Source of the DNA: Escherichia phage dhabil
Strand: one strand, 5' to 3'
Sequence record: MN850621.1
DNA length: 64,000 nt
Shown here piece after piece: positions 1 to 45,629 of the stretch (its first letter is position 1; every line of letters starts with the position of its first letter). Below the pieces are notes generated by a model. It was not told the DNA's origin, made no database searches, and saw only the letters and a list, made by a program, of their open reading frames with translations. The translations under genes were made by a program, and so were the position numbers.

Positions 1-76
1 CTTTAGACCGGCAATATGAATCATACTTTTTATAATAGGCCATCTCAGTATTATAACGTGGGTGTCTATCAGCCAT
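1..76 (-). CDS. hypothetical protein, N-terminal fragment (ATG at 74-76, continues past window start)
   Basis: Minus-strand ATG at 74-76 opens a frame (MADRHPRYNTEMAYYKKYDSYCRSK...) that runs off the window; no clear RBS. Confidence 0.25.
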   Translation of the reverse strand, partial: MADRHPRYNTEMAYYKKYDSYCRSK

Positions 77-150
77 AATAATACTTAACGGCCAACCTTT
101 GGCATAATCGCGAAGACCGTTTATTTTATGAATGTATCTTTTCTTTAATT

Positions 151-375
151 TTAGCATGAGCTTGGGTACCAGATTTTACCATCGGAGCGAGCAACGAAGG
201 TACGACCAGCTTCTTCACCATAACAAGAGCTATTCAGCCAATCTTCAAGACGAACTTCACCATCATAATCATCAAGCTCAACACCAAAATCCTGAGCAGA
301 AGCCATATCTTTTACTTTCTTATACAGCGCAGCCAGTTCAAGAGCTGCTTTTTCTAATTCATTAATATTAGACAT
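151..375 (-). CDS. small acidic protein, member E of 5-gene paralogous array (74 aa, ends ...KIWYPSSC)
   Basis: ORF track; tight tandem spacing with upstream paralog (stop TAA inside the TAAGGTGATAAA-ATG RBS); C-terminal W-x-x-S-S-C tail shared with four neighbours. Confidence 0.6.
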   Translation of the reverse strand: MSNINELEKAALELAALYKKVKDMASAQDFGVELDDYDGEVRLEDWLNSSCYGEEAGRTFVARSDGKIWYPSSC

Positions 376-384
376 TTTATCACC

Positions 385-597
385 TTAGCAAGACATAGAG
401 GATGTAAACCAGAAACCTTCACCATCTGGGATACCGTAATCATCACGGACCCATTCGTAATCATCATATTCCGGATTCTTTGGGGAAATGTATTGTCCAC
501 GGCCGGAAACATGGAACTCTTCACCTGTTTCGTCAGCCACGGACTGACCTTTACGTACTAATTCACGGATTTGTTTTTCAATTTCATCAATAGTCAT
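385..597 (-). CDS. small acidic protein, member D of paralogous array (70 aa, ends ...FWFTSSMSC)
   Basis: ORF track; 9-10 nt gaps to neighbours; upstream gene stop sits in TGC-TAA-GGT-AAT-AAA-ATG; conserved C-terminal tail. Confidence 0.6.
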   Translation of the reverse strand: MTIDEIEKQIRELVRKGQSVADETGEEFHVSGRGQYISPKNPEYDDYEWVRDDYGIPDGEGFWFTSSMSC

Positions 598-606
598 TTT
601 ATTACC

Positions 607-804
607 TTAGCATTCGTAAGAGGAGGACACCCAAGAGGTACCACTAATAGTAATACAACCGTTATAAAGCGTTATATGTCGTTCTAAGTCACGAGCACCA
701 TCAATATAGATATCAGCTTCTTCGCGTTCTTCTTTACAAATTTGAATAACGTTTTCAATTGCCGCAGCGGCAGTTCGGATTGCACAATCTAATTCACGAG
801 ACAT
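607..804 (-). CDS. small acidic protein, member C of paralogous array (65 aa, ends ...SWVSSSYEC)
   Basis: ORF track; RBS GGA overlapping upstream stop (TGT-TAA-GGA-AAT-ATT-ATG); conserved WVSSS-x-E-C tail. Confidence 0.6.
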   Translation of the reverse strand: MSRELDCAIRTAAAAIENVIQICKEEREEADIYIDGARDLERHITLYNGCITISGTSWVSSSYEC

Positions 805-813
805 AATATTTCC

Positions 814-1095
814 TTAACATTCAGAAGAAGAGGACACCCAACCGCCAGTTGCGAGGTCAGTTGTATAGTCATGAGTATTAACAATAGCCCATTCAGGATG
901 ACCATCTTCTTCCCAATGGGCAAGGTCAGCTTTCAAGGCGCCAGGAGAATAATAGTCACCGCCCATACCGCGAGCAGGGTATATATTAAAATGAGTCTCA
1001 TATTTGTCTGCAATTTCCTCGGCACGACGAATAGCTTCATGAATTTCTTTTACTGCGGCCAGAAGCTCTGGATGGTTATGATTATCATTCATCAT
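814..1095 (-). CDS. small acidic protein, member B of paralogous array (93 aa, ends ...GGWVSSSSEC)
   Basis: ORF track; shares internal EEIADKY...G.DYY.PG block with member A and the C-terminal tail. Confidence 0.65.
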   Translation of the reverse strand: MMNDNHNHPELLAAVKEIHEAIRRAEEIADKYETHFNIYPARGMGGDYYSPGALKADLAHWEEDGHPEWAIVNTHDYTTDLATGGWVSSSSEC

Positions 1096-1104
1096 AGCTT
1101 TTCC

Positions 1105-1395
1105 TTAGCACATTGCCGAAGAGGAGACCCAGGCACCAACTGTAACGACGCCATTTTCAACTTCACCGCCATTGTTTTCAATTTCATCTTTAAACCACTG
1201 GGAGCATTCATAACCAACAGGGTAGTAGGTACGTCCTGAGCCATAATCACCTGTTCCGAATTGAATACCGTACTTATCGGCAATAGCTTCACATTTGGAT
1301 TCGATGATATCTACTTTACCGAGCAGGGCATAGATAGCTTTTTCTGCAGATTTCTCGTCGTTGTATTCAGGGATTTCAATTTCAATTTTATTCAT
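1105..1395 (-). CDS. small acidic protein, member A of paralogous array (96 aa, ends ...GAWVSSSAMC)
   Basis: ORF track; EAIADKYGIQFGTGDYGSGRTYYPVGYEC block paralogous to member B; conserved C-terminal tail. Confidence 0.65.
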   Translation of the reverse strand: MNKIEIEIPEYNDEKSAEKAIYALLGKVDIIESKCEAIADKYGIQFGTGDYGSGRTYYPVGYECSQWFKDEIENNGGEVENGVVTVGAWVSSSAMC

Positions 1396-1745
1396 GATTT
1401 ACATTCCTTAATAAAGGTTTCAAGGTCATTACGTTTGGTTTGTTTTACATACTCATTATAATTAGCCATCTCTAAAGCATATCTCTTACGGATGGGAGCA
1501 TTCAAAGCATTTGTATGGCAAATATCATACACGAGAGGGATAAAATAAGCCACGACAGCCGGAGCAATTATCATATAGAAACCCATCTCAATAGGCATGA
1601 CTCCTTCGATTGCAGCCATAACTGTGGTCATTACCAGACCAACCAGACCGCCGAGCATACCTGTGACAATTCCCGTGAATAAGGAAATAGCAATATCATA
1701 TTCAGCCAATTGATAAACATGCGATGAAAGACTAGGCCGTTCCAT
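1392..1745 (-). CDS. small integral membrane protein (about 117 aa from Met at 1745)
   Basis: ORF track; RBS AAGAGG 7 nt before ATG at 1743-1745; hydrophobic stretches (GIVTGMLGGLVGLVMTTVMAAI, YMIIAPAVVAYFIPLV) look like TM helices. Confidence 0.55.
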   Translation of the reverse strand: MERPSLSSHVYQLAEYDIAISLFTGIVTGMLGGLVGLVMTTVMAAIEGVMPIEMGFYMIIAPAVVAYFIPLVYDICHTNALNAPIRKRYALEMANYNEYVKQTKRNDLETFIKECKS

Positions 1746-2274
1746 TTTGGACCTCTTTAGCGTATTCACGGCATTCAGCAATAAAGCGATTAAGCTTCCG
1801 TTGTTGTTTACGACTTTCTAATGTGTACTCAGCAGTTAAGATACCAAGCTCGGCTTTATCATAATTTTTAATATCAGTGTAAGATGGTCGACGGTCGACC
1901 ATTCCAAATACATCACCATTTTCTAAAGCCACATAGCATACTAAATGGTAATCATCGTCTGCCATATTAAGAAGCACGCAATCATTGCTCTCATTTAAAG
2001 AATATACTGAATAACGTAGTCCAGCGAATTCCACTCGTTGAATAGCCAGATTTACGTCAATAATTTCCAAAGCATCTTCAAAAGAAAGGTCTTCAGCTAA
2101 AGCAAAAATAAAAGGTAATTTGGTAGTATCGCCACGGCTAGATGTTCTGCTTAAGAAATCGTTTGAATAGCCTAGGTCTTGGCGAATTCTATAAAGAACT
2201 GAATTGGTTTCATGGGAAAGACCACTATTTTTAAACCAATCAATATTTGATATAAGGTTATCATATAAACTCAT
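1732..2274 (-). CDS. hypothetical protein (180 aa)
   Basis: ORF track; strong RBS GGAGGAGAGGAG upstream; no family recognised. Confidence 0.55.
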   Translation of the reverse strand: MSLYDNLISNIDWFKNSGLSHETNSVLYRIRQDLGYSNDFLSRTSSRGDTTKLPFIFALAEDLSFEDALEIIDVNLAIQRVEFAGLRYSVYSLNESNDCVLLNMADDDYHLVCYVALENGDVFGMVDRRPSYTDIKNYDKAELGILTAEYTLESRKQQRKLNRFIAECREYAKEVQNGTA

Positions 2275-2295
2275 AATATTCTCCTCTCCTCCAAA

Positions 2296-2315
2296 TAGGG
2301 AGACCGAAGTCTCCC
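2296..2315 (-). terminator. GC hairpin GGGAGAC-TTCG-GTCTCCC (minus-strand sense); weak terminator or RNA-stability element
   Basis: Perfect 7-bp stem with tetraloop directly after the 2323-2916 gene, followed by TATTT. Confidence 0.4.
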
Positions 2316-2959: not shown

Positions 2960-2989
2960 ATTATACCCTGTCCTCTGAGGGTTGTAAAC
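2960..2989 (-). promoter_or_regulatory. early sigma70-type promoter (GTTTAC-N18-TATAAT, minus sense) with hairpin GAGGACA/TGTCCTC around the -10
   Basis: Read on minus strand: GTTTAC AACCCTCAGAGGACAGGG TATAAT; resembles T4 early promoters. Confidence 0.45.
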
Positions 2990-2992
2990 ATT

Positions 2993-3391
2993 TTATTTCA
3001 TTTTTGCTAGGCAAATTTCATTGGCTTCCCATTGAGCTTGCTTAATAATAGCTTTGGATACAGGAACCCTTTGACCATAAGTTTTTGACGTTGAGAGAAC
3101 AATATATTTGTTTGCCTCATTATGCCAACCTAGTGATTTTTCACCATGAGTACCTTTAACCACAGCTGACACCTCAACAGAGCAACCACCATCAGAAATC
3201 TTGGTTTCTACAATCCATTCATTTCTCTCGACAGCTTCAATTTCCGATCTCCTTTTTTCTTCATACATGGCGGCCCAATCAGTTTTTGCCAAGCTGAAAG
3301 TAAGAGCTTTCTCTAATTCTTTGGCAGCTTTTTGTTGTTCAGGCGTTAATGAATTATACAACTCTTGCATTTCTTTATCTTCGATATTCAT
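2993..3391 (-). CDS. hypothetical protein (132 aa)
   Basis: ORF track; RBS GAGGAGA before ATG at 3389-3391. Confidence 0.55.
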
Positions 3392-3416
3392 TATGCTCTC
3401 CTCAAATTACGGGCTC

Positions 3417-3446
3417 ATAATATCTCAATCATGAGCCCGTGTAAAC
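3417..3446 (-). promoter_or_regulatory. early promoter (GTTTAC-N18-TATTAT) inside hairpin ACGGGCTCAT...ATGAGCCCGT
   Basis: Minus sense: GTTTAC ACGGGCTCATGATTGAGA TATTAT; 10-bp inverted repeat encloses the -10. Confidence 0.4.
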
Positions 3447-3448
3447 AA

Positions 3449-3712
3449 TTATTTCATATTATTGAAATAATCTTCCGCATCAAAATCGTTATCGTGATAA
3501 ACTTTGGTAGACAATTTGACGTACCCTTCGGCAGCAAACATATTAACCACAACCTTTACGGTATACCACTGTCCATCGTCATTACCCATTACTGCGTAGG
3601 TTTCAAATATGGGATGGTCATCACCTATAACCTTAATATCGTTAACAGTAGCACCAAATTCTTCAGGAACGCATTTCATAAAGAAATTAAACAATTCACC
3701 ATAATTATCCAT
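3449..3712 (-). CDS. small acidic hypothetical protein (about 87 aa from MDNYGELF)
   Basis: ORF track uses a GTG start at 3727; ATG at 3710-3712 has RBS GAAGGAGAG and is preferred. Confidence 0.5.
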   Translation of the reverse strand: MDNYGELFNFFMKCVPEEFGATVNDIKVIGDDHPIFETYAVMGNDDGQWYTVKVVVNMFAAEGYVKLSTKVYHDNDFDAEDYFNNMK

Positions 3713-3747
3713 TTTACTCTCCTTCACTCTGTTGTTTTGATAGGTCT

Positions 3748-3776
3748 ATAGTATCACGTTTAAAGGAGGTGTAAAC
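3748..3776 (-). promoter_or_regulatory. early promoter (GTTTAC/TTTACA -35, TACTAT -10)
   Basis: One of three near-identical copies of ...TTTACA-N16/17-TACTATAG(G/A)CCTATCAAAA (also at 5902 and 6253). Confidence 0.5.
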
Positions 3777-3807
3777 AACTTTGTGAAATTATTTTTAGTT
3801 TAAACCC

Positions 3808-3829
3808 CCTAAAAGGAGACCGAAGTCTC
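3808..3829 (-). terminator. intrinsic terminator GGAGAC-TTCG-GTCTCC + TTTT (minus sense)
   Basis: Hairpin followed by TTTTAGGGGG, directly after the 3836-4459 gene. Confidence 0.5.
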
Positions 3830-3835
3830 CTTTCA

Positions 3836-4459
3836 TTATTTACGAGTCTTTTCGAACTGAGCTGCGTCACCGGCCAGTCGGCGTGCTTGACGAAGTTTGT
3901 TGTCAATTTCTTCGCGCATAGGCTGGGTGTACTTAAGGCCTTCAACCGTCAGATAGAGACGATAAAGGTCTGGTGTGTCCAGGTTGTTAATGTGTTGACC
4001 GTTACGAAGAACATTGAATTCACGAACAAGGTGTTTAGTTTCGGATTCTATTTCAGAAACCAAAGAAGCCAGTTGGTTATATTTTTTAACAATAGTGCTG
4101 GTGTCGAACTTGATTTTAGGTTTAGGAGCTTCTTTTACAGGCTCTGCTTTAGGTGCTGCCGCAGGTTTAGGTGGTGCAACTTTGGTTGGGGCTGCAGGTT
4201 TAGCAACAGGAGCTTTAGCTGGTTTAGCAGGTTTAGTAGCGCCACCGGCTACGATATCTTTAAAAGCTTTGGAAGCTTTGTAATATTCTTTCTGGTTACT
4301 AGTATCAAAACCATACATATCATAAACGTTTTTAAAGAACTCGGTAGTGGTTTTAGTCCCGGAAATTTTATCATAAGCAGCTTGCCACATATCTTTAGTC
4401 ATGCGCACGCTGGCTTCAGTCAGAACGCTTTCGTTCAAAAATTCATTGTAAGTTTTCAT
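3836..4459 (-). CDS. internal head protein, IPIII-like (207 aa) with N-terminal capsid-targeting sequence MKTYNEFLNE
   Basis: N-terminus matches the T4 internal-protein CTS (MKTYQEF-type, L-x-E gp21 cleavage context); Lys/Ala/Pro-rich basic core; T4 IPIII is similar in size. Confidence 0.7.
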   Translation of the reverse strand: MKTYNEFLNESVLTEASVRMTKDMWQAAYDKISGTKTTTEFFKNVYDMYGFDTSNQKEYYKASKAFKDIVAGGATKPAKPAKAPVAKPAAPTKVAPPKPAAAPKAEPVKEAPKPKIKFDTSTIVKKYNQLASLVSEIESETKHLVREFNVLRNGQHINNLDTPDLYRLYLTVEGLKYTQPMREEIDNKLRQARRLAGDAAQFEKTRK

Positions 4460-6292: not shown

Positions 6293-7176
<884 letters not shown>

Positions 7177-44123: not shown

Positions 44124-45629
44124 ATGTCAGACAATCCATTATACGGGCATGATGGTAGAGGCCACTTTAGAGGCGTATCATTAGTAGAAGTTCCACAGAA
44201 CAAATCATTGGAATTTGTGGACATACTCACTAGTGAAAGCACCTTAGACCCTACTATGCTAGATTCTTCTCAAAGCTATGGACTTGAATTTATAAAACAA
44301 GCTTCTAGGGAAGGCGCGTTGGCCCATTTAGGTATAACTAATGAGATGCTAACACCTGGTACTGAAGGTCCACAAGGCCCTAAAGGAGACCCAGGGCCGC
44401 AAGGTATTCAAGGTAACCCCGGTCCTAAAGGAGAAAAGGGCGAACCAGGACCAGTAGGTCCAGAAGGTCCTAAAGGAGACCCGGGTTCACCAGGAAAAGA
44501 AGGCCCTCAGGGTTTACAAGGGGCCCAAGGAGAAGTAGGACCGCAAGGACCACAAGGTCCTATAGGCCCGGCAGGTTTGGTGTGGAAGGGAGCCTGGGAT
44601 GAATCTACCCAATACTCTAAAGACGATGCAGTTGGATACCAGGGAGCTTCTTATTTTTGCATCAGTTCTAATACAGGAACAATACCTCCTAGCGAAGGAG
44701 TTTGGGCACTATTGGCTAATATCGGTGCACCAGGTCCTCAAGGACCAACAGGCCCAACCGGCCCTCAAGGTCCACAAGGCGCGCCAGGCCAAGATGGTAA
44801 TGGGTTTATCTGGGCCGGAAACTGGGCCCTTGGTTCGTCTTATTATATAAACGATTTGGTCCAGTGCGAAGGGTCTTCTTGGATTTGTATCCAGGATAAT
44901 ATAGCAAATAATGATAGTTATCCTGGGAGTGGAGACCTGTGGGCCGATTATTGGAATTTATTTGTAAAAGAAGGGCGTCCAGGAAATCCCGGAGAAGATG
45001 GTGCACCTGGAGAGCAAGGTGCCCAAGGACCGCAAGGCGACCCAGGTCCTAAAGGTGAAAAGGGTGAACCCGGGCCACAAGGTATTCAAGGTCCTATAGG
45101 TCCTGCAGGTGCGCCAGGCAAAGATGCAGTATTTGATGTCGATTCTTTAACCCAGTCTCAATTAAAATCTTTATATGATAAACTTTTCCCATTCTATCCA
45201 CCTAGATATTGGAAAGGCTCTTTAAGATTTGATAAGCCTCTGAACACTTCAGAGTGGAAGGAAATACGTTTGTGGGACCTTAATATGGTTCTTCATGTTC
45301 GCATGTACTCATCTGTAGGCATCCATATAAGGGCTACTAATGCAGGTCTTACTAATAGGCTTGATATTAAAAGATTTACCAACTATGAAAACGGAATAGA
45401 ATGTGCCAACTGGAGTAATGTGTTGTGGTCATCATCTCCTGAATTATTCGACGATTTGGCTTATTCTAGTGCAAGACAATTTAACCGTTACGAAATATTT
45501 GACCGTGATACTAGAAAATACTACACTGTATCTGTGTTTATTGTAGGCGGCCCTCTTAATACGACTACAGATATCCCTGTTGAAGTTTTATTTTCTGTCG
45601 AAGACCATACCAATATGAGCACGTTTTAA
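44124..45629 (+). CDS. collagen-like triple-helix repeat protein with two carbohydrate-binding-like (CBM5/12-type) inserts and a C-terminal globular domain (501 aa)
   Basis: Three Gly-X-Y runs (aa about 81-152, 203-229, 286-336) separated by two W....Y..(D)D.V.Y.G.SY.C...N.G..P....W motifs; RBS AGGAGA. Confidence 0.75.

Follow-up and report, generated by a model that had tools for sequence, protein, structure and literature searches.

The stretch of DNA analysed here (the window: 64,000 nucleotides of Escherichia phage dhabil, sequence record MN850621.1) comes from a Dhakavirus, a JS98-like T4-type phage, and over bases 1-2400 it shares 99.9% identity with Escherichia phage CLB_P2 and 95.7% with JS98. 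Near its left end, the minus strand carries an array of five small genes, here termed members A to E, whose products end in a shared C-terminal tail and whose relatives in other phages stand beside a gene for a predicted nucleotidyltransferase (NTase). An earlier model-generated reading of the window (the original prediction) had pointed to these five open reading frames (ORFs), and all of them, with their C-termini GAWVSSSAMC, GGWVSSSSEC, TSWVSSSYEC, GFWFTSSMSC and KIWYPSSC (A to E), were found exactly where it had placed them. All on the minus strand, member A (1105..1395, 96 amino acids (aa), isoelectric point (pI) 4.3) ends in WVSSSAMC at 1108-1131, member B (814..1095, 93 aa) in WVSSSSEC at 817-840, member C (607..804, 65 aa) in WVSSSYEC at 610-633 and member D (385..597, 70 aa) in WFTSSMSC at 388-411. 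Member E (151..375, 74 aa) is of a double-motif type: WLNSSC occupies residues 46-51 (223-240) and is followed by YGEE, and after a 17-residue linker WYPSSC forms the terminus (residues 69-74; 154-171), with the cysteine directly after the serine pair, i.e. with a spacer of zero. The internal copy in E had been missed by the original prediction, and the G-x-W prefix that it had included in the tail holds for A, B and D, not for C and E. As had been described, all five are acidic, with pI values of 4.3-4.8 and a net charge of -6 to -11, and aromatic residues make up 6-13% of their sequences.

Four junctions in the array read TGY-TAA-GGN-N6-ATG, so that the stop codon forms part of the Shine-Dalgarno sequence of the next gene. 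The coupling of every gene that had been proposed is real; what did not stand is the single exact string, which varies between junctions, and two genes use overlaps: the start of member A forms an ATGA overlap with the stop codon of the upstream membrane-protein gene, and the ATG of the gene after E overlaps the cysteine and stop codons of E (TC-ATG-C-TAA). The order of the array is kept in Dhakavirus and Gaprivervirus, and the mean ratio of nonsynonymous to synonymous substitution rates (dN/dS) against orthologues in five genomes of these two genera is 0.10 for A, 0.22 for B, 0.06 for C, 0.26 for D and 0.10 for E. Members A to E are real, selected and coupled genes. In the JS98 RefSeq record, member D is left unannotated (JS98 locus 6386-6595), and in the RB69 reference record the A-type gene is split by a frameshift into ORF139c and ORF138c (3989-4295, tail WVSSPALC), whereas other Mosigvirus phages encode an intact A-type protein of 101 aa.

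The invariant core of the tail is W-x-x-S-S-(0-3)-C. A regular expression for the tail has five true matches and one spurious match among the 687 ORFs of the window; in 80 related loci it has 201 same-strand matches, compared with 0.45 expected from residue-shuffled ORFs and four on the opposite strand. The spurious match, an ORF at 44349-44486 (-), has no match to the family hidden Markov model and was judged to be due to chance. Among 184 superfamily sequences, 170 end in W..SS.{0,3}C, most of the exceptions being truncated or carrying one extra residue; tryptophan, the two serines and the cysteine are the only invariant positions, and the terminal cysteine has no conserved intramolecular partner. 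We also examined the possibility, named together with the original prediction, that the tail merely reflects an overlapping nucleotide element with no selection on the amino acids, and the codons speak against it. Serine and cysteine codons differ between the five copies, as originally reported, and tail codons change only synonymously among the five orthologue genomes. In a set of 156 distinct DNA contexts drawn from diverse phages, all six serine codons, from the TCN and the AGY boxes, occur at each of the two invariant serine positions, the cysteine is encoded by TGC (105) or TGT (51), all three stop codons are seen, and GG directly follows the stop codon in only 69. The terminal cysteine is retained even at altered junctions, such as that of member A in MN01 (TGT TAA T ATG), and in member E, which is without a coupled ribosome-binding site. 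Codon diversity and the junctions without TAAGG thus rule out a by-product of a TAAGG ribosome-binding site, and on this codon evidence the tail is selected at the protein level, as the original prediction had held.

The five proteins had been regarded as paralogues. In hhalign comparisons with the tails removed, the bodies of A, B and D are mutually homologous (98.7-99.7%), the relationship of E to these three is marginal (40-59%, E about 1e-4), and the body of C has no detectable homology to any other member (<3%), so that the claim holds for A, B and D and is without support for C. The matches of members A (E 1e-22), B, D and E all fall on the C-terminal end of phrog_899 (positions 133-221, E 1e-22 to 4e-10), and that of member C is to phrog_4882 (E 2e-36), both phage PHROGs of unknown function; consistent with the original statement that the family is not recognisable, none of the five has a match in Pfam, NCBIfam, PADLOC or PDB sequences. 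By tblastn, A-type genes occur in 366 phage records and E-type genes in 244, the T4-like genera concerned having Escherichia, Aeromonas, Klebsiella, Enterobacter, Serratia, Citrobacter and Erwinia as hosts. An exhaustive profile search of 1.84 billion cluster representatives returned 175 clusters at E<=1e-3, nearly all of 70-120 aa and with the match reaching the last residue. The commonest subfamilies are A-like (107 of 365 members) and B-type (YGMGGxYY; 95 of 365), and 19 of the 35 members with a spacer of zero hold an internal motif copy. A locus contains between one and five tail genes, which makes the array in the window maximal. Public records give family members spurious names such as 'tail completion protein', 'head outer capsid protein', 'major capsid protein', 'malate synthase | transposase' and 'chromosome partition protein smc'.

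The body of member A consists of a long helix, the segment F-x-x-x-DYGSGRTYYP and a small beta-sheet; that of member B contains EEIADKY...YPARGMGGDYYSPG. In the AlphaFold2 (AF2) model of member A (predicted local distance difference test score (pLDDT) 89), the long helix spans residues 14-42 and the small sheet comes next. W89 belongs to a beta-strand of the ordered core (pLDDT block 96), while the final six residues are placed less firmly (75), in keeping with an accessible tail; the tail is modelled as a short helix rather than as disordered. T4 internal proteins carry an N-terminal capsid-targeting sequence of the MKTYQEF.. type; none of the N-termini of A to E is like it, while nearby RB69 ORF149c and a CC31 ORF do resemble it. 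The position of W89 and the ordered tail would fit a purely structural role, in which the tail caps a small fold, the tryptophan packing in the sheet and the serine pair forming a turn, without any part in recognition. We consider this quite improbable: the tail also stands on bodies without detectable homology and is repeated in E after the linker, which argues for a portable tag and not merely the end of one fold; the terminal cysteine lacks a conserved intramolecular partner; and a structural cap would leave the strict linkage of the family to an enzyme gene without explanation.

This linkage is the main result of the analysis. An ORF of about 300-320 aa lies just downstream of the tail genes in every genus inspected, even where the genes have been relocated, as in Aes012 (beside nrdD) and AS-zj (near rnlA). 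The encoded protein, of about 310 aa, consists of the Pfam domains DUF7277 and DUF7275, belongs to phrog_2141, has no assigned function and is found in 734 phage records, among them phages that are not T4-like. In CLB_P2 its gene starts 1,067 bp downstream of the stop codon of member E, and relative to the window it lies at about -916 to -1875, i.e. 0.9-1.9 kb beyond the left edge. The pairing is kept in Otagovirus, Phapecoctavirus, Lazarusvirus, Xanthomonas phages, jumbo-phage contigs and one contig of a metagenome-assembled genome (MAG); four tail genes accompany the enzyme in Pseudomonas phage phiPsa381, three (one of the double-motif E type) in E. coli phage ESCO13, and two each in Acinetobacter phage Apostate and Xanthomonas phage BUDD. 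When loci were seeded with the enzyme, 79 of 80 viral-contig loci had at least one tail gene no more than 6 kb away, in nearly every case on the same strand; when they were seeded with B-type members, the enzyme lay just downstream in 24 of 26, one of the exceptions being a contig end. As a control for specificity, the enzyme is present in 75 of 77 distant loci, compared with 0-5 of 77 for every other JS98 neighbour, and a third conserved component, sought among all these neighbours, was not found, since none persists outside close relatives. These co-occurrence counts rest on pattern-seeded locus retrieval, and most of the metagenomic family members that were looked up sit on contigs too short to inform on neighbours. 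Among 100,044 species-representative genomes there is a single locus, a 4.8-kb MAG contig with two family genes directly upstream of the enzyme. The linkage is bidirectional and independent of lineage, and the small proteins and the enzyme form a conserved, phage-exclusive two-component module with one to five small acidic proteins per enzyme.

The linkage also bears on the view that the small proteins act independently, as host-takeover or anti-defence inhibitors such as nucleic-acid mimics, with the tail binding a host target and the enzyme merely co-regulated. Ocr, Arn and ArdA, phage DNA-mimic or acidic anti-restriction proteins, are small, strongly acidic, early-expressed accessory proteins encoded in plastic regions. 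A to E share these features, early expression being presumed in their case, but the three are not known to have a conserved C-terminal tag or a dedicated enzyme partner. Small size, the low pI, an operon of early type in a plastic region absent from T4 and a copy number between one and five, which fits an arms race, would all suit such inhibitors. We nevertheless regard this view as improbable. Co-regulation alone is hard to sustain in the face of a bidirectional linkage across lineages that involves no other common neighbour; the structure search found no solved protein, DNA mimics included, similar to the small proteins, and PADLOC gave no match; and the subfamilies are of ancient origin and, rather than diversifying fast, are strongly constrained by purifying selection. 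The specific DNA-mimic-like or anti-defence role suggested in the original prediction, to which the enzyme gene outside the window was not visible, finds support in the acidity of the proteins only, and no defence-related or anti-defence model matches.

Alignment and modelling of the partner protein point to its likely activity. Enzymes of the nucleotidyltransferase fold share the signature hG[GS] / [DE]h[DE]h / h[DE]h, in which hG[GS] stands ahead of the second core helix and the other two motifs, on a core beta-strand and the strand next to it, supply three carboxylates that bind metal (Kuchta et al. 2009, PMC2794190). In an alignment of 36 diverse homologues, G5-S6, D24-x-D26 and E68 are invariant, and in the AF2 model of the enzyme (pLDDT 92) they occupy the corresponding places: V-I-G5-S6 immediately precedes helix 6-11, D24-W-D26-F is located at strand 25-30, and the neighbouring strand 63-72 bears F-E68-A. 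The protein thus combines an alpha/beta NTase core with the motifs of a Polβ-type NTase, including all three carboxylates (D24, D26 and E68). Its best structural matches are MenT1, MenT3 and MenT4, the entry of the MenAT1 complex is among the Foldseek matches, and its fold is closest to the MenT/AbiEii tRNA-nucleotidylating toxins and the antibiotic O-adenylyltransferases. With catalytic motifs and fold intact in alignment and model, the enzyme is a predicted nucleotidyltransferase. At the sequence level, none of the 36 homologues matches PF08843/DUF1814 (AbiEii) at E<=5, DUF7275 and DUF7277 being the only matches. In the helical C-terminal domain, DUF7275, invariant histidine, aspartate and cysteine residues are abundant, Cys242 and Cys271 among them; the domain has no confident structural match, and its interpretation as an HD domain was considered and not supported. 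An identity with RlaP was ruled out, as there is no PF10127 match and an RNA ligase gene lies nearby only in AS-zj. Public records misname the enzyme 'prohead assembly scaffold protein', and it is called 'putative nucleotidyltransferase' only in some Acinetobacter and Pseudomonas phages.

Based on these findings, we propose that the tail-bearing small proteins are acceptors of the partner NTase, a reading to which, as a whole, we assign a probability of roughly 40%. The small, folded, acidic proteins would be the variable, multi-copy half of the module and the single Polβ-type nucleotidyltransferase its constant half. The exposed tail would be the element by which each small protein engages the active site of the enzyme, after which one or both invariant serine hydroxyls would accept a nucleotidyl (or phosphoryl) group; the terminal cysteine might aid positioning or metal binding, or react afterwards. 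A single enzyme could in this way activate, inactivate or charge as many as five different small proteins, effectors or carriers, in the early phase of infection. The parts of this proposal differ in strength. Conserved linkage makes it very probable that the small proteins and the enzyme are functional partners that interact physically, and the tail is a probable contact element with the enzyme, whether as a serine-hydroxyl acceptor or as a docking peptide; covalent modification of its serines is a tentative suggestion that could well be wrong. The further idea of a widespread, phage-exclusive protein-tagging system, in which a dedicated MenT-like NTase covalently modifies the Ser-Ser-...-Cys C-terminal tag of a group of small carriers or effectors by Ser-O-nucleotidylylation, perhaps followed by chemistry at the terminal thiol, we hold to be somewhat unlikely; if true, it would represent a new class of post-translational modification module in lytic phages, serving host takeover or counter-defence. 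The idea of a shared docking, processing or modification site, put forward for the tail in the original prediction, gains weight from the strict linkage to a predicted nucleotidyltransferase.

We favour a substrate role because all that these otherwise divergent proteins universally have in common is a terminal peptide bearing a pair of invariant hydroxyls, and because NTase-fold enzymes act on hydroxyls, with NTases that modify a neighbour already known (MntA-HepT). GlnD and GlnE, which act on PII and glutamine synthetase, are NTase-fold enzymes that modify a hydroxyl of a partner protein. In the HepT-MntA system (a HEPN/MNT type VII toxin-antitoxin (TA) system), a precedent for the proposed reaction, an NTase-fold enzyme nucleotidylylates a hydroxyl of the protein encoded beside it (PMC7641770; PMC2794190), MntA polyadenylylating its small partner HepT (PMC7641770). 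The phage enzyme has no sequence or close structural relationship to MntA, and the partners in the HepT-MntA and Gln systems are an RNase toxin or a metabolic regulator, whereas those of the phage enzyme form a family of small acidic proteins.

Several points weigh against the proposed substrate role. The protein-modifying NTases cited target tyrosine, inside a folded domain, and not serine, which is the acceptor proposed here and lies in a C-terminal tail. MenT acts on tRNA and not on proteins, and its small partners are regulators, not substrates (PMC11375011). The E-type spacing between the serine pair and the cysteine differs from that of the other members, and a single active site would have to take both; simple O-nucleotidylylation, moreover, leaves the invariant cysteine without explanation. 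The two halves of the module are also occasionally found apart: Enterobacter phage CC31 has a full-length enzyme with no tail gene within 6 kb, a contig of 305 kb (L118) carries a tail gene but lacks the enzyme within 7 kb of it, and shorter, divergent enzyme homologues in Vibrio phage nt-1 and Gordonia phage WilliamBoone have no tail genes nearby.

The similarity to MenT leads to the main alternative, a different arrangement of the same components, in which the enzyme is a MenT-like NTase acting on RNA or tRNA 3'-ends in host takeover, tRNA repair or counter-defence, and the small proteins are its non-covalent regulatory or adaptor subunits. Docking through the tail or the long N-terminal helix would, as in MenA, inhibit or activate the enzyme or retarget it to other nucleotides or RNAs. 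MenA1 binds MenT1 via one extended helix, alters its nucleotide specificity and induces its auto-phosphorylation (PMC11375011); every member of the phage family starts with a long helix, MenT1, MenT3 and MenT4 are the best structural matches and the MenAT1 complex is among the Foldseek matches, the same-strand order of small genes followed by the NTase recalls antitoxin-toxin operons, and a phage tRNA cluster lies a few kb from the array. We still consider such a regulatory role unlikely, as it is the tail, not the helix, that is universally conserved, and an invariant serine pair with a terminal cysteine suggests chemistry more than a docking surface. Furthermore, the Pfam AbiEii/DUF1814 model matches none of the 36 homologues, toxin-antitoxin addiction is of no obvious use to a lytic phage, and up to five anciently diverged partners per enzyme are unlike known TA pairs.

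The invariant cysteine would find a role in a pathway akin to that of ribosomally synthesised and post-translationally modified peptides (RiPPs), in which a tail serine, activated by nucleotidylylation or phosphorylation, is eliminated to dehydroalanine and the cysteine thiol adds to it, so that a lanthionine-type ring caps the protein. In its spacing, S-S-x-x-Cys-COOH is reminiscent of ring motifs of the lanthionine or AviCys type. Cys242 and Cys271, both invariant, and several histidines are found in the C-terminal domain of the enzyme, and one enzyme serving many precursor-like genes recalls the promiscuous lanthipeptide synthetases. A RiPP precursor is, however, defined by an unstructured leader with a core peptide and by a maturase (LanB/C/M/KC/D, radical SAM or YcaO) in the same cluster. 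A Ser/Cys-rich C-terminus is present here, but the body is confidently folded (pLDDT 89) and no RiPP enzyme domain occurs in the neighbours, and we regard this pathway as very far-fetched.

In outline, the module resembles known modules of an NTase plus a partner; it differs from them in its exclusivity to phages, the multi-copy arrays of partners, the new family and fold of these partners and the invariant C-terminal tag. The MenAT/AbiE systems (MenT1-MenA1, MenT3-MenA3 and AbiEii-AbiEi) are bacterial, in contrast to the phage module, with its one MAG fragment in 100,044 genomes, and have one partner instead of one to five; the W-x-x-S-S-..-Cys tail of the phage partners, a new family, is absent from MenA and AbiEi, and the phage enzyme differs from MenT/AbiEii in its additional His/Asp/Cys-rich helical domain DUF7275 and in lacking PF08843/DUF1814 sequence membership. 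ANT(2'') and LnuA have small-molecule acceptors, are shorter, lack DUF7275 and partner-protein genes, and are not phage-encoded. Like the phage enzyme, RlaP (PF10127) is a stand-alone Polβ NTase that phages carry in their accessory regions (PMC7824862; PMC12776372). RlaP is associated with RNA ligase and has no described tail-protein partners, whereas the phage enzyme is not consistently found beside RNA ligase genes.

The module formed by the tail family and the enzyme is previously undescribed. In the literature searched, there was no mention of DUF7275/DUF7277, of the PHROG identifiers or of the RB69 ORF names, and nothing relevant on AMPylation by phage NTases with C-terminal tails; in public records, both halves are only 'hypothetical', DUF or spuriously named. 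The pairing therefore provides the first functional context for DUF7275/DUF7277, phrog_899, phrog_4882 and phrog_2141, and could point to a new protein modification or a new mode of NTase regulation. The module is present in hundreds of sequenced phages, including therapeutic-candidate T4-like phages of E. coli, Klebsiella, Acinetobacter, Enterobacter and Aeromonas, and it extends to Phapecoctavirus, Otagovirus and jumbo-phage contigs. AbiEii/MenT proteins, relatives of the enzyme, rank with the most common toxins that bacteria direct against phages, so that a counterpart carried by phages together with partners of its own bears directly on the arms race between phages and their hosts.

In the window, the array is flanked by an e.3-like membrane-protein gene and the e.2 region, with e.6 and an e.5-like gene further upstream. 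In T4, e.3 abuts e.2 and no equivalent of the array exists there, in agreement with the placement in a hyperplastic region that had been proposed. The e.3-like gene (1392..1745 (-); predicted membrane protein of 117 aa, phrog_2330, C-terminus ...FIKECKS) is translationally coupled to member A and shares its operon; it lies outside the conserved module, being present in 0 of 77 distant loci. The e.5-like gene (1732..2274 (-), 180 aa, phrog_8788) likewise belongs to the transcription unit of the array and not to the module. On the other side, the 5' part of the gene after E, a phrog_7065 homologue (JS98 orf125), occupies 1..157 (-) and extends past the window edge. A sigma-70-like candidate, TTTACA-17-TATAAT (2960..2988 (-)), which matches the consensus at 11 of 12 positions and is identified by this match only, lies just upstream of the e.6 start, and a transcript running through the array may possibly begin at this candidate early promoter.

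In 21 of 29 T4-like loci, and likewise at the changed position of the module in AS-zj, the module comes with a gene similar to JS98 orf120 and RB69 ORF132c (228 aa, ending in ...EFPMEGW; JS98 locus 3132-3818). With a presence in just 2 of 77 distant loci, this gene is probably an accessory of particular lineages and not part of the core. A second C-terminal motif family, [LI]-x-x-F-I-[KTMA]-E-C-[RK], occurs in the e.2- to e.5-like, mostly membrane, proteins of the region, with the endings ...LETFIKECKS, ...LNRFIAECREY.., IENFIKECRK, LENFIKECRGK and VERFITECRNLR; its carriers are the genes at 1392-1745 (-) and 1732-2274 (-) of the window, RB69 e.2, e.3, e.5 and ORF133c, and two further loci. 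As ATT-AAG-GAA-TGT includes UAAGGAA, the Shine-Dalgarno sequence of the gene that follows and overlaps, this FI-x-EC-[RK] motif may be partly nucleotide-driven, unlike the W..SS..C tail. Finally, a perfect hairpin with a tetraloop, GGGAGAC-UUCG-GUCUCCC, lies at about 2290-2312 (-) in the spacer between e.6 and the e.5-like gene, directly before the ribosome-binding site of the latter; it is missing from the list of the terminator scan because it has no T-run, and may be an element of RNA stability or processing.

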